Assembly: GCA_001794905.1 (NCBI GenBank)
Contig: MGLW01000015.1
Location: 1 to 40,788 of the forward strand
Reading direction: 5' to 3'
Length of the DNA stretch: 40,788 bases
Source of the DNA: Chlamydiae bacterium RIFCSPHIGHO2_12_FULL_49_11
Lineage (GTDB): Bacteria; Chlamydiota; Chlamydiia; Chlamydiales; 2-12-FULL-49-11
Below, one piece after another: positions 2,972 to 40,601 of this stretch. Below the pieces are notes generated by a model that was given only the letters and a program-made list of their open reading frames with translations, had not been told where the DNA came from and did not search any database. The first letter of the stretch is position 1; each line of letters opens with the position of its first letter. The translations under genes were made by a program, and so were the position numbers.

Positions 2972-5473
2972 ATGAAAGCTTTTATTTTTATTTTGTGTTC
3001 GGTGCTGATTTCAGCACAGCAAATGACCTTGGCTCCCCGTCAACCCGAATGGGAATTTCGGGTGTCAGACACCCATCCGAACGGGAGCGACCGGGAAGGA
3101 TTATTTTTTGCCGAAGGAGAAGAGGGGGAATGGACCCCGGTCAAGCACTTGATCTTCTCACCTGTTGGGACGATTCTTCTCGAAGAAGACGTAGTGCAGG
3201 GCTCGGTTCCCGAAGCGCAGTTCTTGTGCCACGGGTTGTCCGTAGCATTTTATGATTCGGGCGCCGTAAAAAAAGTAGCCCTGTACCGGAACGGGATAAA
3301 AGAAGGGCCTCGAAAATCGCTATACGACTCGGGTAAAACCAAATCGGAAAAGACGTATGCAAACGGGAAAAAAGAGGGTGAAATCCGTAAATATTTTGAT
3401 ACGGGAGCCCTTTCGTACAAATCGGTATTTGTGGGCGGCTCCCCCGTGGAAGAAGAGCTTTTTTACCATCCCGGCGGCGAGCGTAAAGCTGAAGTTCACT
3501 ACAAAAACGGAGTGAAAGAAGGGCTTGCGTTTGAATGGGACGAAAAAGGAAAACTCAAAGCGCGCTACCGCTATCAAAGCGGAAAATTGGATTCGGCTCC
3601 CGAAGAGCCGGCGGCGATTTTTTATGACGAAAAGCAGGAAATTCGTTCTGTGCATAACTACAAAGCGGGAACGAAAAACGGGACGGAATATTTCTTTCAT
3701 GAAAACGGCATCCAGGCAGAAAAGAGAAATTATGCCGACGGAAAAATTCACGGAACCGTCGAGTATTTCTCTACGACTGGAAATAGTTTGGGTAAGGGAG
3801 AATTTGTCGAGGGAAAACCGGTAGGGGAACACAAATATTTTTACGAAAACGGAAAAGTGAAGTTGCATGGAAAGTATGCAACGCAGGAAAACGCCCTATC
3901 AGAAGTGATCGAATATGCGCCAAACGGCGTGATGACGGCCCGCTATTTCCTTAAACAAAATAACCCCGAAGGGCGATTCTTGCAATGGTATGATGACAAA
4001 CAGCCCAAGAGGGAATATTTTTACAAAGACGGAAAGTTCGACGGAGAGCAGAAAGAGTACCACGAAAACGGGAAACTGGCCGGCATCTACAATTTTAAAG
4101 ACGGGAAAAAACAGGGCAAATGTGCCAACTGGCACCAGAACGGACAAGTTGCTCTGGAATCGAATTTTCATGAAGACGTTCCCGTCGGCAACTGGTTTGA
4201 ATATTTCGCGGACGGAAAACGAAAGCTCGAACAATCCTTCGATGCGGACGGGAAGCTCGATGGGAAACTTGTCCAGTCATATCCAAATGGAGCGCTTCTT
4301 CTCGAAGCCCATTACACGAGCGGTGTCTTGGACGGCAGCTACGTGTCGTACGATGCGAAAGGGGTTCTTTTGCAGCAACTCCTATACCGTGACGGTACTC
4401 CTTCGGGTGAACTCAAAACTTACTATCCGAACGGAACCCTCAAGGAGCATTTTTCGGTGGTGAAGGGGAAGAAAGAAGGTCCTTATACGATGTATCACGA
4501 AAACGGTGCCGTTAAGGTGAAGGCTGTCTACTCTGCCGATCTTCTCGAAGGAGAAGTGGAAGGGTGGTTCGAAGACGGGCTTCGCTCATGCTTGCACCGC
4601 CACGAGCAGGGCAAATTGGTTGGGGCGCAGTTCGACTTCTTTCCCGCCTACATGCAGGGTGAAGCGACTGATGAAGTAGTGCAATCTTCCTCCCATTTTG
4701 ATACGAACGGACTTCGAGACGGGGAGCAGAAAACCTATTATCCCGGCGGTCGGTTGAAATCGGAATCCAATTTCAAACATGGCAAGCAGCTCGGATTTTC
4801 GGCGATTTATAATGAAGACGGACGCACGTTGGAATCGATGAACCATGTCAACGGGAAATTGAACGGTTCGTATTTCCGTTTGGAAAATGACGGCCGGCAA
4901 ATCTATGTCGACTATAAGGACGGGCGGAAAGAGGGCGTGTATACGATGCGGCTGAGTACCGGAAAGGGCGATGAGACCCTGTTACTTGCTGAGGGCAGCT
5001 ACCGGAATGGCAAATTGCAAGGTATCATTTCCGAATACCATCCGCAGACGCAAAAACTCATCGCAAAAGTCCCCTTTGAAAAAGGGCGGCGTGAAGGGGC
5101 AGCTGAGTATTATACCCCGCAAGGCGCCCTGCTCCTCATTACTCGGTTTGTTCAAGACAAACAGGAAGGGGAAGCGGTCGAATATTACCCCTCCGGAAAA
5201 GCGCGGCGCCTTTCGAGTTTTAAAGACGGAGTCCTCGATGGTGTCGTGACTTCGTATTTCGAATCGGGGAAGGTTGAGTCAACCACAAATTATTTTGCAG
5301 GCAAGTTGCACGGCCTTTCCAAAACTTTCAATGAAAGCGGAACGATCATCTTTGAAGGGGAGTATAAGGACGGGATGAAGCATGGCGTCTTTAATAAGTA
5401 CACCGATGACGGCGCCCCTAAACTGCTCCAGACCTACGAAAACGATACCCTGGTTTCAAAGAAAAATCTCTAG
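2972..5473 (+). CDS. Secreted MORN-variant (YwqK-type) repeat protein, roughly 30 tandem repeats of about 23 aa
   Basis: Signal peptide MKAFIFILCSVLISAQQ. Repeating Y/F-x-(N/D)-G-x-x-x-G-x-x-x-x-Y/F units run through nearly all 833 aa, e.g. YKNGVKEGLAFEWDEKGKL and YKDGMKHGVFNKYTDDG. Confidence 0.8.
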   Translation: MKAFIFILCSVLISAQQMTLAPRQPEWEFRVSDTHPNGSDREGLFFAEGEEGEWTPVKHLIFSPVGTILLEEDVVQGSVPEAQFLCHGLSVAFYDSGAVKKVALYRNGIKEGPRKSLYDSGKTKSEKTYANGKKEGEIRKYFDTGALSYKSVFVGGSPVEEELFYHPGGERKAEVHYKNGVKEGLAFEWDEKGKLKARYRYQSGKLDSAPEEPAAIFYDEKQEIRSVHNYKAGTKNGTEYFFHENGIQAEKRNYADGKIHGTVEYFSTTGNSLGKGEFVEGKPVGEHKYFYENGKVKLHGKYATQENALSEVIEYAPNGVMTARYFLKQNNPEGRFLQWYDDKQPKREYFYKDGKFDGEQKEYHENGKLAGIYNFKDGKKQGKCANWHQNGQVALESNFHEDVPVGNWFEYFADGKRKLEQSFDADGKLDGKLVQSYPNGALLLEAHYTSGVLDGSYVSYDAKGVLLQQLLYRDGTPSGELKTYYPNGTLKEHFSVVKGKKEGPYTMYHENGAVKVKAVYSADLLEGEVEGWFEDGLRSCLHRHEQGKLVGAQFDFFPAYMQGEATDEVVQSSSHFDTNGLRDGEQKTYYPGGRLKSESNFKHGKQLGFSAIYNEDGRTLESMNHVNGKLNGSYFRLENDGRQIYVDYKDGRKEGVYTMRLSTGKGDETLLLAEGSYRNGKLQGIISEYHPQTQKLIAKVPFEKGRREGAAEYYTPQGALLLITRFVQDKQEGEAVEYYPSGKARRLSSFKDGVLDGVVTSYFESGKVESTTNYFAGKLHGLSKTFNESGTIIFEGEYKDGMKHGVFNKYTDDGAPKLLQTYENDTLVSKKNL

Positions 5474-35478: not shown

Positions 35479-36094
35479 GGATAACCACCTCCTCATTCTT
35501 TACAAAACGGGAGGCCTGCTTACGATTCCCGAGGGAAACATTACGGATTCGCTCCTGGGGAGGGGCAAAAAGTACCTGAAAGAGAAAAAACAAACATCGG
35601 GAAACGTATTTCTCTATCCTCCCCACCGCCTCGATAAACCCGTCTCCGGCATCGTGGTCTTTGCCAAGACCTCCAAGGCCCTGTCCAGGCTAAACGAACA
35701 AATCCGGGATGGAGTGTGGCAAAAAGAGTACCTTGCGCATGTCGATACCGTGCCGTCGAAAGTCAAAGGAAGACTCGTTCATTATCTCTTGCAACACAAT
35801 CATCGGGCCTATGTATATGATGCCCATAAAAGTGGGACAAAAGAAGCGGTGTTAGAGTACGAAGTGGTCGGACCGCATCTTATCCGTATCCGGCTCATAA
35901 CGGGGCGCTACCATCAAATCCGCGTACAACTCTCTGCCATCGGATCGCCCATCCGGGGGGACGCGAAGTACGGAAGCAAAACAAAGAAAGAAAAAATCGG
36001 ACTGGAACACGTGAAGCTCACCCTCTTGCATCCCGTGTCAAAAATGCCTCTAACCGTGTCTAGTCAGAAAAATATTCACGATATCGAGTTGTAG
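35447..36094 (+). CDS. RluA-family pseudouridine synthase (no S4 domain)
   Basis: ILYEDNHLLILYK, catalytic HRLDKPVSGIVVFAKT, GRYHQIRVQL. Start taken at MKLSEKD (35447). Confidence 0.82.
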   Translation: MKLSEKDILYEDNHLLILYKTGGLLTIPEGNITDSLLGRGKKYLKEKKQTSGNVFLYPPHRLDKPVSGIVVFAKTSKALSRLNEQIRDGVWQKEYLAHVDTVPSKVKGRLVHYLLQHNHRAYVYDAHKSGTKEAVLEYEVVGPHLIRIRLITGRYHQIRVQLSAIGSPIRGDAKYGSKTKKEKIGLEHVKLTLLHPVSKMPLTVSSQKNIHDIEL

Positions 36095-37462
36095 CTGTAA
36101 AACTTCGGCCTTTGCACCAAAATTGCCGGCAATAGCCTTTAAAGCGGCAAAATATTCTGTCTGTGTTGGAATATGATGAAGGGTATTTTGGATTTTTTGG
36201 CGAATGATCCCCCCAAATGTCTTCGGAACGCTGGCCGTTTCAAGGAACCTCGGAATAGTATTATGTCCGCGCGTCATATTGATGAGAATTGCAATAGCAG
36301 GTTGCCACCTTTCGGGTTCCTTCGCGCAACTAAATTCCAAGGCATAACGGTTTAATAACTCGTTGCACTCCATCTTTGCCCAATCCCGGTTCCATTCGGT
36401 GAAGGTTGCAAAGGCAGCGGGTTTTTTCAGTGGGGGAAGCATTTGGTCAATAGGATGGAGGTCCTCGGAGAACTTGAGCGAAATGTCAATCTTATATTCT
36501 TTCAAACTTGCGCATACCGAGCGGAGGATGACTTGCAAATGTAAAGGAACCGGCTTCTCCGTCCACTCCAAAGTTTGGGTATTCTCAACCAGTTTCCTGA
36601 GTTCCTGTCCCCGCTCTTCCTTGTCGTCCAGTGTCGGATCTTGTTCGATCAGATCGGCTGTAGCACAAAGTGCCGTGAGTAAATTGAGAAAGTCTCTTTT
36701 CAATGTCGACAACATTGTGACTACATGCGAATACTGCCCGGCTTCGATGGCCGGTTCCTCGTTTGATGATGAAGCAGCCGCAAGTCTGCGGTGCGGCGGC
36801 GTTCCGACTACATGCGGATTCTGCGAAGCTTCAACTTGCTGCTCGTTTGATGAGGAAGCAACCGCTTGTTCGGGAAGCGGCGGCGGCTCATTTGAGGCGG
36901 GTGTTTGTGCAATATGGCTTACTTCATGCCGGACGCATTGAAAGATATGTCCTGTAGGATCGTGCTTCTTTCCAAGAAGATCCAAAGTCCTTCCGATGAA
37001 AACGGTTCTTGGGGCTGCAAGTAAAATCCGGAAAGCGCCGCGTAGCTCTTCTTCTTTGGGATTCCAATTTTGGAGTTCCTGCATCAGCAGCAAGTGATTA
37101 TCATCTGAAGATACAGCTTGTGACAGCATTTCCATTATATTTGAAATAGGGGCGCGGGAAAAGGTGCCTTTGAGGCAACGGTCGGCAAAGGACGGCCGGT
37201 AGTTTGCCAGGTCATCATTGATTTGTTTTGCGAGTTCTCTATCGGATTGGTTTTGGAACTGGGAAAGGTGCCGGTTGATGAGAGGGATAGTTTGGGTGTC
37301 GAAAACATGAAATAGTAAGCGAAAAACCACGGCAACAAAGTGAATTATTTTTTGAAGCAGGGGAGGCGTCGCATACACAAGTTGTTGATCTACCTCATGA
37401 AGTGCATAAAGATGACCTTCTTGCAGGGCCTTTTGGATGGAAATTAAGCTCATAACAACCAT
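36050..37462 (-). CDS. Hypothetical protein (470 aa), effector-like, with an internal imperfect tandem repeat
   Basis: Long ORF with no signal peptide or TM segment. Central repeat ASSSNE(Q/E)..(E/I)..Q..HVV occurs twice with a period of about 29 aa. The 3' end overlaps the convergent rluA-like gene by 45 nt. Confidence 0.6.
   Translation of the reverse strand: MVVMSLISIQKALQEGHLYALHEVDQQLVYATPPLLQKIIHFVAVVFRLLFHVFDTQTIPLINRHLSQFQNQSDRELAKQINDDLANYRPSFADRCLKGTFSRAPISNIMEMLSQAVSSDDNHLLLMQELQNWNPKEEELRGAFRILLAAPRTVFIGRTLDLLGKKHDPTGHIFQCVRHEVSHIAQTPASNEPPPLPEQAVASSSNEQQVEASQNPHVVGTPPHRRLAAASSSNEEPAIEAGQYSHVVTMLSTLKRDFLNLLTALCATADLIEQDPTLDDKEERGQELRKLVENTQTLEWTEKPVPLHLQVILRSVCASLKEYKIDISLKFSEDLHPIDQMLPPLKKPAAFATFTEWNRDWAKMECNELLNRYALEFSCAKEPERWQPAIAILINMTRGHNTIPRFLETASVPKTFGGIIRQKIQNTLHHIPTQTEYFAALKAIAGNFGAKAEVLQLQLDIVNIFLTRHG
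36718..36866 (-). repeat. Imperfect tandem duplication of about 87 nt inside the 36050..37462 CDS
   Basis: On the plus strand, GACTACATGCGAATACTGC...CTCGTTTGATGATGAAGCAGCCGC is repeated as GACTACATGCGGATTCTGC...CTCGTTTGATGAGGAAGCAACCGC. Confidence 0.7.
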
Positions 37463-37580: not shown

Positions 37581-38840
37581 TTACAAAGACAGAAGCCATT
37601 TCCAAATAGGAGTGACTATAATTTGAATTCCATCCACTTCAATTAGGTCATGTTCGTTTTCGGTAAGGATTAAGCCCTTTTGTAGATTATAGGCCTTCAT
37701 CGCTTCAACAAGTCCACTAATTTCTCGTTTCTTTATTTCTTCATTAGAGAGATGTGCTGTCACTTGAATAGCTTCAACGATGTGATTTCCTTCTCTAAGG
37801 ACAAAATCACACTCTTTTTGATCTTTGTGAAAATAAACTTCTTTTCCCAATCTTTTTAGATGTAGAAATACAATATTTTCTAATAGACGACCTCTATCCT
37901 CGCTAATGCGAAATCCGGTAATACGAATAATTGCAGGATCGATCATATAACATTTTTTGTTATATTGAATTTGCTTTTTTAGAGAATGACTATAGCGATT
38001 TACAAAAAAACAGAGATAACATTGCTCTAAGTAGTTGCAATAATTTGCGATCGTATGCGGACTGCTGATACCTACAATTTTACCAAGTTTTGTATAGCTA
38101 AATTCTTTTCCGATATTGCTAGCAAAATAATAGACTACTTCTTGCAAAGATCTTTCATCGTTTATTTTGTAACGAGTTATAATATCACGATAGAGAATAC
38201 CATCAAATAGATCTTTCAAATATTCAGCCTTTTCGAATTTTACATATTCAGGAATTCCTCCATTATTCAGGTAATTAGAAAAGTGATGTAATATCATTCC
38301 GGTGTCATTCGTTGAAAGAGCCTTCTTAGAGAGAATATCCGGATATTTATGTAATATAATTTCTCTAAAAGAAAGTGGGTATACTTCTAGCTGAATATAT
38401 CTACCGGTTAAATGAGTGCCTAACTCTTTACTTAAGAGTTTTGCATTGGATCCTGTGATATAAATTTTTTTCCCCTGTTCATAGAGTCTTCGGATAAATC
38501 TTTCCCATCCCTCGATATTTTGAATTTCATCAAAGTAAAACGTTGATTGTTCACCAAAGAGTTCTATTAAAACTTCCAGCAGCATTTGAAAGTCTTCAAC
38601 CTTGAATTGAATCAATCGTTCATCATCAAAATTTAAATAATAGTCTGACTTTGCTAACTCTAATTGTGATATGCGTTGAATTGTAGATTTTCCTGACCTT
38701 CTGATCCCACTGATAATCATTATACTTGGATCATTTACAAAACGCATTAAAGTATCAGTTAGCGTACGAATAAAAAAATTCTTAGGAGACTTGTACTCCC
38801 GTTGATCGGCAATGACTTGTTTGAGTACTTCTCGTTCCAT
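37581..38840 (-). CDS. COG1373-type AAA ATPase with an HTH-like segment and a DUF4143 / PD-(D/E)xK-like C-terminal domain
   Basis: Walker A ISGIRRSGKST, Walker B TFYFDEIQ, HTH-like YTKLGKIVGISSPHTIANYCNYLEQ, C-terminal ECDFVL...VEAIQVT. AT-rich codon usage. Strong SD (AGAGGGAAAAATG). Confidence 0.8.
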   Translation of the reverse strand: MEREVLKQVIADQREYKSPKNFFIRTLTDTLMRFVNDPSIMIISGIRRSGKSTIQRISQLELAKSDYYLNFDDERLIQFKVEDFQMLLEVLIELFGEQSTFYFDEIQNIEGWERFIRRLYEQGKKIYITGSNAKLLSKELGTHLTGRYIQLEVYPLSFREIILHKYPDILSKKALSTNDTGMILHHFSNYLNNGGIPEYVKFEKAEYLKDLFDGILYRDIITRYKINDERSLQEVVYYFASNIGKEFSYTKLGKIVGISSPHTIANYCNYLEQCYLCFFVNRYSHSLKKQIQYNKKCYMIDPAIIRITGFRISEDRGRLLENIVFLHLKRLGKEVYFHKDQKECDFVLREGNHIVEAIQVTAHLSNEEIKKREISGLVEAMKAYNLQKGLILTENEHDLIEVDGIQIIVTPIWKWLLSL

Positions 38841-39125: not shown

Positions 39126-39704
39126 ATGAGGATATTTCATATTTTTGCCTTTTTGTGCACATTCGTGATATGTAAACATTGTGAAGCTGCAGGCAGATTC
39201 TCTGTGAGCAAAATGGATTTTCAGTTTCATGGCATAGAATCTTTAACAATGTTTTTAGATCAATTAGAAACGACATCTTCAGATATTATATGCATCAAGT
39301 CGCTTACGAGCGAAATGAAAGAATGCATCTTCCGCATGTTCGAGCATAAATTTCCTTTTATCTATTCAGAGTTGGTGATTCCGGAGTTGCTGATTTTATC
39401 GAAATTTGAACTCTCCAAACTCAAAATTACATGCATCTCTCCTTCTGTTCGCAATGTTGGGCTTTTCCTGCCATGTTCAAATAGTAGCGATCAAGAAGAT
39501 ACCGACAATCAAACTCATGGATATGTAGAATTTGAAGGGAAGACTTCAACCCATGGTAACACAAGCATATATGCAGGAATCGGCATTGTCAGGGAAGGAG
39601 AAGACGGTTCTAAAGCAGATTTCTCCTGCGGGGGTCAAGTGAAGCGGAATATTGAAGGAGAAGTTGAAGGGGAAGCAACACTCAAAGGAAAATTTTCCTT
39701 CTAA
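39126..39704 (+). CDS. Secreted hypothetical protein (192 aa) with a C-terminal Phe
   Basis: Signal peptide MRIFHIFAFLCTFVICKHCEAA, GGAG SD upstream, Gly/Glu-rich beta-strand-like tail ending KGKFSF. The stop TAA abuts the ATG of the next gene. Confidence 0.6.
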   Translation: MRIFHIFAFLCTFVICKHCEAAGRFSVSKMDFQFHGIESLTMFLDQLETTSSDIICIKSLTSEMKECIFRMFEHKFPFIYSELVIPELLILSKFELSKLKITCISPSVRNVGLFLPCSNSSDQEDTDNQTHGYVEFEGKTSTHGNTSIYAGIGIVREGEDGSKADFSCGGQVKRNIEGEVEGEATLKGKFSF

Positions 39705-40601
39705 ATGAATCAAGCAAAACGCATCACACTACTTGCATCACTTGTTACAATAAGTGTCATTATATTGCTGGTTTACGTGCACCAATATTTTCACAATCAA
39801 AGATTGGCGACAATTTCACTTAAAGTGTCCACTTGGCATACGCCTGTTATTGTTGTAAATCGAGAAAACAAGTCGTTCTCTTTTTTATTAGACACGGGAA
39901 TGCGTTCGGATCTTTGTTTGAATGCAACAATAGAAGATGATTTTCCAATTCAAAAAACTGATACCCAAGGATTCATAACCAATATTCTTGGTAATGCCCA
40001 TCAAAAACACTTTTTTTATTTACCCCAATTGCAGCTGGAAACTCTCGTGATTAAGAACATACAAGGATTTTCCGAGGGTGCTGAGGCTGAAGAAGCAAAT
40101 CTTCCCATGAAATTTATTTGTCAAAAGGAGCACGATCATGTGGAGCCTCAAGCCACAATAGGGATGGGAATTCTTTCTAGATACAATTTTTTTCTTGACC
40201 TACATTTGGGGGAAATCTCGTTCTTTCATAAAGGGGTTGTCCCAAAGGATATATTAAAGAGGCGGTATCTAAAAATTCCTCTTATCTTTGAAGGAAAGAT
40301 ACCCATCGTTGAGCTAGATACCAATTTCGGCAAGAAAAAATTCATTATCGATACGGGTACTACGGTCTGTATCATTCCAAAAAAAATGCAACCGGCATAC
40401 CTGAATGAGTCATCGGAAGATGTTGAGATGTTCGATATGAACCTGCGATCCGGCAATTTTCATTTGGGAAAGCATCGATTTTTTCTGTTTGATGCCGATT
40501 TTAGCAAGGTGAATGCCGATGGTCTTATTGGGATGGATTTTTTATGCAAGTACGATCTGTTTTTCGATAATATCAAGCACTACTTATATTTGACGATCTA
40601 G
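39705..40601 (+). CDS. Membrane-anchored protein with two tandem retropepsin-like (clan AA) aspartic protease domains
   Basis: N-terminal TM segment ITLLASLVTISVIILLVYV. Domain 1 has FLLDTGMRS (DTG at 39891-39899) ... ATIGMGILSRYNFFLDL. Domain 2 has FIIDTGTTV (DTG at 40350-40358) ... DGLIGMDFLCKYDLFFD. Confidence 0.75.
   Translation: MNQAKRITLLASLVTISVIILLVYVHQYFHNQRLATISLKVSTWHTPVIVVNRENKSFSFLLDTGMRSDLCLNATIEDDFPIQKTDTQGFITNILGNAHQKHFFYLPQLQLETLVIKNIQGFSEGAEAEEANLPMKFICQKEHDHVEPQATIGMGILSRYNFFLDLHLGEISFFHKGVVPKDILKRRYLKIPLIFEGKIPIVELDTNFGKKKFIIDTGTTVCIIPKKMQPAYLNESSEDVEMFDMNLRSGNFHLGKHRFFLFDADFSKVNADGLIGMDFLCKYDLFFDNIKHYLYLTI

Follow-up and report, generated by a model that had tools for sequence, protein, structure and literature searches.

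A putative single-chain bilobal aspartic protease of Chlamydiota and the predicted secreted protein encoded beside it

Introduction

Aspartic proteases are still divided into the bilobed, monomeric pepsins and the homodimeric retropepsins (PMC12239564), and an origin of pepsins by duplication and fusion has been discussed as a hypothesis, mainly on structural grounds (PMC2761423, PMC4140852). The 40,788 bp stretch of DNA analysed here (the window), from a contig of an uncultured member of the Chlamydiota, contains near its right-hand end a gene that raises two questions, namely whether its product is a fused, single-chain counterpart of a retropepsin dimer, and, if so, what such an enzyme would act on. 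An earlier note, made from the sequence alone, had read the gene as encoding a membrane-anchored tandem retropepsin. We conclude that, very probably, the product is an aspartic protease of clan AA with two lobes in a single chain. Its fold and its membership of clan AA can be stated with high confidence, and catalytic activity is likely. A gene for a predicted secreted protein lies immediately upstream, and its product is a candidate partner.

Two homologous lobes in one chain

The gene is an ATG-to-TAG open reading frame (ORF) of 298 codons. An exact-sequence look-up found the product to be identical to OGN62706.1, a "hypothetical protein" of Chlamydiae bacterium RIFCSPHIGHO2_12_FULL_49_11, which is a groundwater metagenome-assembled genome (MAG), and the identical protein is carried by 7-10 independently assembled contigs. 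The ENA cluster representative of the protein (P0001 in our numbering, in which P denotes proteins and L loci) is only 274 aa and lacks the membrane anchor (39705-39776); homologs favour the longer form. The features of the gene to which we refer below, all on the forward strand, are as follows.

39705 to 40601, forward: gene for the bilobal retropepsin-like protein (ATG-to-TAG ORF, 298 aa, OGN62706.1)
39723 to 39779, forward: N-terminal hydrophobic segment, residues 7-25 (I7-V25; Kyte-Doolittle 2.7 in a 19-residue window)
39801 to 40232, forward: N-lobe, a retropepsin-like beta domain, residues 33-176 (from the secondary structure and confidence of the model, a Pfam stretch at 54-125, and hhalign against the C-lobe)
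39891 to 39899, forward: N-lobe catalytic motif D63-T64-G65 (FLLDTGMRS; codons GAC ACG GGA)
39951 to 40037, forward: long beta hairpin of the N-lobe, residues 83-111, with its tip at L95-G96-N97 (model strands 83-92 and 98-111)
40158 to 40175, forward: N-lobe hydrophobic-hydrophobic-Gly plus helix motif, I152-G-M-G-I-L157 (from the sequence)
40260 to 40598, forward: C-lobe, the more canonical retropepsin-like domain, residues 186-298 (from the model, hhalign, a Pfam RVP stretch at 200-234, and Asp_protease_2 on the isolated half)
40350 to 40358, forward: C-lobe catalytic motif D216-T217-G218 (FIIDTGTTV; codons GAT ACG GGT)
40521 to 40544, forward: C-lobe motif G273-L-I-G-M-D-F-L280, where conservation across the family is highest

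When the two halves of the protein were compared as single sequences by BLASTP, they matched at E = 7e-4, and only at the G-M-G-I-L / G-M-D-F-L motif. A profile-profile comparison of the N-lobes and C-lobes of the whole family with hhalign gave 97% probability (E = 3.1e-11 over 109 columns), and pairs D63 with D216 and helix motif with helix motif, at a lobe identity of 15%. As the family-level profile results, from this comparison and from the family searches described below, remove the doubt left by the single sequence, the internal duplication behind the two lobes is, as judged from the profiles, real. Elements of the psi-loop, defined as hydrophobic-hydrophobic-Asp-Thr/Ser-Gly with a downstream hydrophobic-hydrophobic-Gly (PMC4814920, PMC2761423), were found in both lobes, as L-L-D63-T-G with T-I-G153 and as I-I-D216-T-G with L-I-G276.

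Three retropepsin-type Pfam profiles match the protein above their cut-offs, namely gag-asp_proteas (28.6 bits; cut-off 28.2), Asp_protease_2 (28.0; 24.3) and RVP (25.8; 20.7), and the stretches matched by clan AA profiles fall in both halves. Asp_protease_2 also matches 21 of the 23 aligned family members, with a best E of 1.1e-13. No match at E <= 10 was found in an NCBIfam scan of the protein and of each half, including to TIGR02281 and TIGR03698, and the pepsin A1 profile PF00026 is absent among the Pfam matches of the protein and of all 23 family members. Sequence matches in the PDB to A1 enzymes are weak (E = 0.013-0.03); DDI1 and ASPRV1 were also matched.

An AlphaFold2 model built on a 23-sequence alignment has a mean predicted local distance difference test score (pLDDT) of 88.9 and a predicted template modelling score (pTM) of 0.84. 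It consists of a helix at residues 3-30 followed by beta-rich lobes at 33-174 and 188-297. Foldseek returned 544 PDB matches at E <= 0.001, with aspartic proteases at the top. The best match was 9iy9 (E = 4.6e-11, TMq 0.62), followed by plasmepsins, renin (TMq up to 0.64), fungal pepsins, cardosin and others, aligned over approximately 345 columns that span both lobes. When predicted viral structures were searched instead, single-lobe matches to phage, retroviral and caulimoviral aspartic proteases were returned, together with one 203 aa target that aligned over 274 columns. As this length equals that of the engineered tethered HIV-1 protease dimers in the PDB, the target is probably a tethered retroviral protease dimer. 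The lobes are thus predicted to be arranged as they are in pepsins and in retropepsin dimers.

The model places one long beta hairpin in the N-lobe, and we regard it as a candidate for a single flap over the active site. Its counterpart in the C-lobe is short and preceded by a low-confidence loop. G96, in the hairpin tip, is at least 90% conserved, and a G-N tip was found in 99 of 205 family units. A single flap on the N-lobe would give the asymmetry that characterizes the arrangement in pepsin.

Most of what the earlier note had described was borne out. The 298 aa ORF, both D-T-G motifs and both G-x-G/D-(I/F)-L motifs are where it had placed them, the retropepsin Pfam profiles it had named do match, and its two homologous domains are supported both by the lobe alignment and by clan AA similarity in both halves. 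The structure prediction it had called for gave a confident single-chain model that superposes on pepsin-family enzymes over both lobes. Its guess at an obligate-intracellular type of genome fits the attribution of the exact protein to a Chlamydiae bacterium. Two points need to be corrected. The domains are not equal at about 115 aa each, as the N-lobe, which includes the flap hairpin and a low-confidence insert, is approximately 144 aa and the C-lobe approximately 113 aa, and the TIGR02281 profile, also suggested, matches neither the protein nor its halves.

A chlamydial family with a conserved aspartate pair

A homolog search with the single sequence returned only four proteins, and a profile was needed to reveal the family. 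A profile search of an indexed protein database then found 28 clear relatives. In 1.84 billion cluster representatives, searched exhaustively with HMMER, the number of matches is 472 at E <= 1e-30 and rises to 4763 at E <= 1e-3. Against the hidden Markov model (HMM) of the family, the window protein scores E = 5.5e-79.

To follow the catalytic motifs, 205 aligned units were taken from the best 150 representatives and the first matches. In the C-lobe the motif is DTG in 151/205 units and DSG in nine. In the N-lobe it is DLG in 130/205, and DTG, DSG and DIG account for 21, seven and seven, respectively. The DTG/DTG combination of the window protein is therefore a minority state in the family and, because the N-lobe motif is mostly D-L-G, the Thr-Thr fireman's grip is not general in it. 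In retroviral proteases the fireman's grip mainly stabilizes the dimer; covalent fusion of the lobes would make it less needed. The window protein is atypical of its family only in the N-lobe, in having DTG rather than DLG and in the replacement of Arg by Met in the helix motif, for which the family consensus is I-G-R-x-I-L, similar to the retroviral G-R-N/D-L-L. Within the C-lobe motif, G276, M277 and F279 are invariant in family alignment A2.

Both aspartates are kept in 161 of the 205 units, both are lost in 25, and one is lost in 19. The two aspartates strongly tend to be lost together (odds ratio 48, Fisher p = 4e-17), though related sequences were counted as independent and the p value is only indicative. 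Among single-unit proteins, 129/138 (93%) keep both aspartates. A further 33 proteins contain two or three full bilobal units per chain (e.g. P0005-P0009, P0044-P0064), and units also occur as adjacent genes; loci L001 (6970-8869), L011 (3173-4843) and L014 (3158-4783) have two units each. In none of the 33 multi-unit proteins are two units fully intact. In 25 of them a dead or half-dead first unit is followed by a live one, and 30 retain a fully live unit. That the aspartates are kept together and lost together is the pattern expected of a working catalytic dyad under purifying selection, with duplicates turning into pseudoenzymes.

For the distribution of the family, one genome from each GTDB species was scanned with the pattern [IAL]DG[ILV][LI]GMDF, derived from a four-sequence alignment; this pattern is strict and undercounts genomes. 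Full-length members were found almost exclusively in Chlamydiota MAGs (Parachlamydiales, Simkaniaceae, Rhabdochlamydiaceae, "Chlamydiia" and others), with a few more in MAGs that are unclassified or carry the label Verrucomicrobiae. In other phyla, for example in Pirellulales, the matches were weaker, partial and mostly to the C-lobe. Every member that was looked up is metagenome-derived, and one is named "retropepsin-like domain-containing protein" by NCBI. Full-length members of the protease family or of the partner family described below were also seen in MAGs assigned to other phyla, namely L025 (JAGGIK010000030.1, Snodgrassella sp.), L008 and L011 (Verrucomicrobiae) and L031 (Anaerolineae). 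These could be mis-binned chlamydial contigs or real occurrences.

A predicted signal anchor

The protein begins MNQAKR-ITLLASLVTISVIILLVYV, and the membrane anchor that the earlier note had seen is supported by the hydrophobic residues 7-25, by the modelled helix at 3-30 and by the presence of an N-terminal hydrophobic segment in 130 of the 161 family members that start with Met. In 106 of these 130 the N-side of the segment carries more positive charge, as it does in the window protein (K5, R6). The segment is most likely an uncleaved signal anchor, since the hydrophobic region is long and has no small-x-small site. Because the positive charge lies on the N-side, the predicted topology is N-in and C-out, with both lobes in the periplasm.

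A partner gene directly upstream

The ATG of the protease gene abuts the TAA stop codon of another gene, which we refer to as the partner gene. Three features of it, on the same strand, are needed here.

39126 to 39704, forward: partner gene; its 192 aa product is a reduced form from a secreted EEP-like family (homologs lie upstream in chlamydial loci)
39126 to 39191, forward: predicted signal peptide of the partner, MRIFHIFAFLCTFVICKHCEAA (from the sequence; homologs have N-terminal signal-like segments)
39510 to 39701, forward: C-terminal Gly-rich module of the partner, residues 129-192 (four amphipathic strands of approximately 12 residues, terminal Phe)

The NCBI gene call for the partner, OGN62705.1, is 151 aa long and omits the signal peptide (39126-39248); here too, homologs favour the longer form, and the signal peptide would presumably be cleaved.

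When all ORFs of the fetched loci were searched iteratively, each of the 13 other chlamydial loci with enough upstream sequence proved to carry a partner homolog just before the protease-family gene, in the same orientation and separated from it or overlapping it by no more than 35 nt. In the reverse direction, 3/3 partner homologs have a protease-family gene directly downstream (E = 1e-79 to 1e-99). The pairing thus holds in 16/16 informative loci (L001, L004-L012, L014, L015, L020, L029-L031). As these represent divergent chlamydial lineages, it is hard to explain without a functional link. No EEP-like neighbour was found beside the distant tandem-protein matches that were fetched (L018, L021-L024).

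Partners range from approximately 150 to approximately 500 aa. Long forms combine a signal peptide with a helical region that contains QTFENTLRPWN and with a domain that carries motifs of the NADVVCIQEV and GD(F/L)N types. Their scores against Exo_endo_phos (PF03372) are 21.6-23.7 bits, below the cut-off of 24.5; some carry precomputed PF03372 matches and EEP-family source names. No PDB sequence match was found for a long partner homolog. In the window partner, which has no Pfam match over its 192 aa, SSDIICIKSL aligns with the NADVVCIQEV of the long forms. With K-S instead of Q-E, and lacking the latter half of the domain, the window partner is, from its sequence, unlikely to be an active EEP enzyme.

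What the partners have in common is the C-terminal module of approximately 60 aa, found in 14/14 of the upstream partner ORFs compared. Nearly all end in F or W, and the turns are of the D-x-(D/E)-G-N-x-(S/T) type. In an AlphaFold model of the window partner, which has an overall mean pLDDT of 57, the four strands of the module (129-140, 146-157, 163-174 and 180-191) are predicted at pLDDT 75-80. A trimeric-autotransporter-like anchor was considered for the four-strand module and rejected, as the module does not match YadA_anchor, has no coiled-coil stalk in front of it and also comes in a second flavour without the aromatic last residue.

Proposed role and alternatives

We propose that the product is a Sec-targeted protein that would be held in the inner membrane by its one N-terminal helix, with a periplasmic part amounting to a miniature pepsin, i.e. 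two duplicated retropepsin-like lobes in one chain. D63 and D216, one from each lobe, would form the dyad in the cleft between the lobes, and the N-lobe hairpin would close over the substrate as the sole flap. With an aspartate from each fused lobe in one site, the protein would be an aspartic endopeptidase that has no need to dimerize. From a two-gene operon, the secreted EEP-like partner would be made first and the protease second. The protease would then bind and cut the partner in the periplasm, maturing it or releasing it from its C-terminal module, and it is probably via this conserved beta module that the partner would be recognized.

Taken as a whole, this account of a membrane-tethered periplasmic mini-pepsin that serves a co-encoded partner is the one we favour, and we think it somewhat better than even. 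The part of it that makes the partner the substrate is more tentative, and is a suggestion to which we would lean less than halfway. More speculative, and rather unlikely in all its parts, is an extended version in which Chlamydiota possess, in this gene pair, a hard-wired module of cargo and protease. Here, the mini-pepsin would recognize the module of the partner and cleave it or hand it on, the module would be an oligomerizing outer-membrane anchor or a sorting tag, the dead units would be receptors or regulators, and the family would be an intermediate between retropepsins and pepsins.

Several observations weigh against the proposed account. The support for the whole family is computational, and the proximity of D63 and D216 is taken from the superposition of the whole fold and from the pTM. 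The window protein's own Pfam scores barely exceed the cut-offs and NCBIfam contributes nothing; the N-lobe helix motif lacks the Arg of the family (IGMGIL versus IGRxIL), and, with D-L-G in the N-lobe of most members, the classical Thr-Thr fireman's grip is not a family trait. On the partner's side, no significant Foldseek match in the PDB was found, the best matches being the EEP-fold protein Tdp2 (E = 0.09) and OmpX (E = 0.4). The second flavour of the module, which ends in a polar tail rather than a terminal aromatic residue, also precedes a protease-family gene. In the two-unit loci L001, L011 and L014, the unit that adjoins the partner is the catalytically dead one, so the conserved interaction could be binding and not cleavage. 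Finally, a promoter and terminator scan gave the operon no forward-strand signal above background, and no promoter-like site on that strand in the 285 bp intergenic region upstream of the partner gene.

Of the alternatives, the one that survives best is an active protease with a broad or host-directed role, either as a surface protein or effector or in periplasmic housekeeping, with the neighbouring gene merely co-transcribed. All of the evidence for activity applies equally to such an enzyme, and the family is expanded in host-associated Chlamydiota. There is also the example of the rickettsial protease APRc, which was found in the outer membrane despite its predicted alpha-helical membrane segments, cuts several proteins (PMC4140852) and is reported to bind immunoglobulin as well (PMC8649778). 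However, a merely co-transcribed neighbour does not fit the tight one-to-one pairing in all informative loci of divergent lineages, and a single N-terminal signal anchor predicts an inner-membrane protein that faces the periplasm. Nor was a type III secretion signal or other sign of export found, though no search aimed at one was made. We therefore consider a broad or host-directed role unlikely. The earlier note had suggested a surface or host-directed protease, for which no specific support was found; the signal-anchor topology and the invariably co-encoded, Sec-secreted partner favour a periplasmic enzyme with a dedicated partner.

The second alternative is that the protein has the pepsin fold but is a binding protein rather than an enzyme, which holds, chaperones or inhibits the EEP-like partner and keeps its aspartates for structural reasons. 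The dead units are common enough to suggest this (the 25/205 that lack both aspartates), as are their position next to the partner in the three two-unit loci and the non-canonical D-L-G of most N-lobes, and conglutin gamma is found among the Foldseek matches to the PDB, at rank 46. However, the window protein itself has the canonical DTG in both lobes, nearly all single-unit proteins keep both aspartates, the joint loss of the pair is as for a working dyad, and a fully live unit persists in almost every multi-unit protein. A role confined to binding is, on this evidence, improbable. The last alternative, a chance resemblance of motifs or a spurious ORF, might be suggested by the weak single-sequence scores (approximately 26-29 bits in Pfam, E = 7e-4 between the halves, no NCBIfam match), but is refuted by the 472 representatives found at E <= 1e-30, the lobe hhalign and Asp_protease_2 results for the family, the confident model with its hundreds of aspartic protease matches in Foldseek, and the identical protein on 7-10 contigs, and its probability is negligible.

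Other features of the window

Divergently oriented upstream of the proposed operon is a gene for an ATPase with AAA_14 and DUF4143 domains (37581-38840, reverse strand), preceded by a promoter-like site running from 38894 to 38867 on the reverse strand that is a perfect TTGACA-16-TATAAT, with the -10 ending 27 nt before the ATPase ATG. AAA_14-type genes were also seen near the gene pair in L029 and L001. The ATPase was considered as a further part of the module and rejected, since a phmmer check did not find it consistently beside the pair.

Elsewhere in the window, two adjacent genes on the reverse strand (29750-30844 and 30919-32271) encode eukaryotic-type Ser/Thr kinase domains (Pfam Pkinase, E = 2e-22 and 6e-20, respectively); the 450 aa kinase-domain protein has a long N-terminal region with no match. 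An 833 aa protein made up mostly of MORN repeat variants (Pfam MORN_2, 181.8 bits) is encoded at 2972-5473 on the forward strand, and a 470 aa ORF at 36050-37462 on the reverse strand was called as a gene on several contigs and has no Pfam match. The window's other aspartic-type peptidase, which is unrelated to the bilobal protease, is signal peptidase II (33216-33698, forward strand; Peptidase_A8 in the gene table of the identical contig L026), whose gene belongs to a housekeeping cluster that includes nrdR and a dksA/traR-type zinc-finger gene. An Rfam scan of the window returned no match.

Significance

As clan AA aspartic proteases, such proteins are already known in databases, including in the single-chain tandem form. 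What appears not to have been described is the chlamydial family, its D-L-G/D-T-G asymmetry, the dead-plus-live tandem units and the obligatory partner gene. Literature searches (for 9IY9, for retropepsins in Chlamydiae, for Asp_protease_2/PF13650, and for bilobal or pseudo-dimer bacterial retropepsins) returned no description of the family or of the architecture and, as far as these searches showed, this would be the first aspartic protease family described in Chlamydiota.

Since the fused lobes are still alike and retropepsin-like while the whole already looks like a small, one-flap pepsin, the duplication-fusion scenario could be examined in real proteins. The family also has a bearing on the biology of the chlamydial envelope. 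The candidate substrate or partner encoded in the same operon makes the function directly testable, and the recurrent dead-plus-live tandem units provide a clear-cut natural example of how pseudoenzymes evolve. There are limits to this importance, in that the architecture is not unique to this gene, all members seen come from uncultured organisms and the evidence is computational.

Comparison with known systems

The nearest relatives in architecture are the tandem proteins of other bacteria. Among the distant matches to the family (from Planctomycetota, Pseudomonadota and others), 13 of 15 have two D[TS]G motifs that lie 120-160 residues apart, and we conclude that single-chain tandem retropepsin-like proteins are widespread in bacteria. 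The fusion that the earlier note had proposed, a covalent pseudo-dimer that would have arisen independently in this genome, is thus upheld in so far as the duplication and the single-chain bilobal model are concerned, but is not special to the genome. NCBI gives these proteins the generic names "aspartyl protease family protein", "retroviral-like aspartic protease family protein" or "predicted aspartyl protease". Like the window protein, the generic examples P0030, P0032, P0037 and P0043 are single chains with a signal or anchor and two D-T-G lobes. They differ in being only distantly related (E = 1e-4 to 1e-9), in coming from other phyla, in often carrying a PDZ domain or a lipoprotein signal (added in several of the distant matches) and in having DTG in both lobes as a rule. 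When the distant proteins were scored with the N-lobe and C-lobe HMMs, the more canonical C-lobe HMM tended to win on either lobe. In some of the PDZ-type proteins the GMDFL-type lobe precedes the other, and this order of motifs hints that fusion took place more than once.

The best structural match, 9iy9, is a Bacteroides fragilis "putative endopeptidase" or "Exported protein" that was released in 2025. It shares the DTG and LGMDF(I/L) motifs with the window family and appears to be a bacterial tandem retropepsin-like protein; sequence similarity is marginal (profile E = 0.0015). Another candidate is Amuc_1434 of Akkermansia muciniphila, a pepstatin-sensitive protease of approximately 50 kDa with DTG and LLG motifs (PMC6982040). 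By its size it might be a two-lobe plus PDZ protein. If Amuc_1434 is tandem-lobed, biochemical proof of activity already exists for the single-chain tandem retropepsin-like type.

Family A1 (pepsin, renin, the plasmepsins, and shewasins A and D) has the same bilobal single chain, in which each lobe supplies a catalytic Asp and only the N-lobe bears a flap, and shewasins A and D demonstrate that bilobal A1-type enzymes work in bacteria (PMC4814920). Superposition of the modelled window protein on A1 enzymes extends across both lobes (TMq 0.55-0.64, E about 1e-9). However, its catalytic unit is approximately 265 aa rather than approximately 325 aa, it has no PF00026 match and no prosegment, it has a membrane anchor, and its family mostly has D-L-G in the N-lobe. 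Its lobes still match retropepsin profiles and each other (E = 3e-11), whereas similarity between the lobes of pepsins is limited to the psi-loop motifs (PMC2761423). By its predicted fold and its sequence, then, the protein is pepsin-like in architecture and lies outside family A1. Two A1-derived plant proteins, the xylanase inhibitor TAXI-I and conglutin gamma, have the bilobal fold, have lost the catalytic residues and are used for binding. In this they resemble the dead units of the family; they are unrelated in sequence, and the window protein, unlike them, keeps both catalytic motifs.

Each window lobe is of the same type as the homodimeric retropepsin-like enzymes (HIV-1 protease, DDI1, ASPRV1/SASPase, and Pseudomonas RimB and RloA-C), and the engineered tethered HIV-1 protease dimer follows the same design principle. 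The natural retropepsin-like members are single lobes that dimerize (PMC12239564), while the window lobes are fused, diverged (15% identity) and asymmetric.

One single-lobe enzyme bears on the proposed role. APRc (RC1339) of Rickettsia conorii is also a clan AA member of an obligate intracellular Gram-negative bacterium, with an N-terminal membrane part and a protease domain that is predicted to lie outside. It autoprocesses, is active near pH 6, and cleaves the autotransporters OmpB and OmpA in vitro (PMC4140852). APRc differs in having one lobe that must homodimerize, in its three predicted transmembrane segments, and in that no dedicated partner gene has been described for it. Having two lobes and one hydrophobic segment, and in view of the lack of any NCBIfam match, the window protein is not of the APRc/TIGR02281 type. 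By analogy, as a membrane-associated retropepsin-like enzyme that processes secreted, beta-anchored proteins, APRc would nevertheless be the closest functional precedent for a protease that serves the secreted partner encoded beside it.

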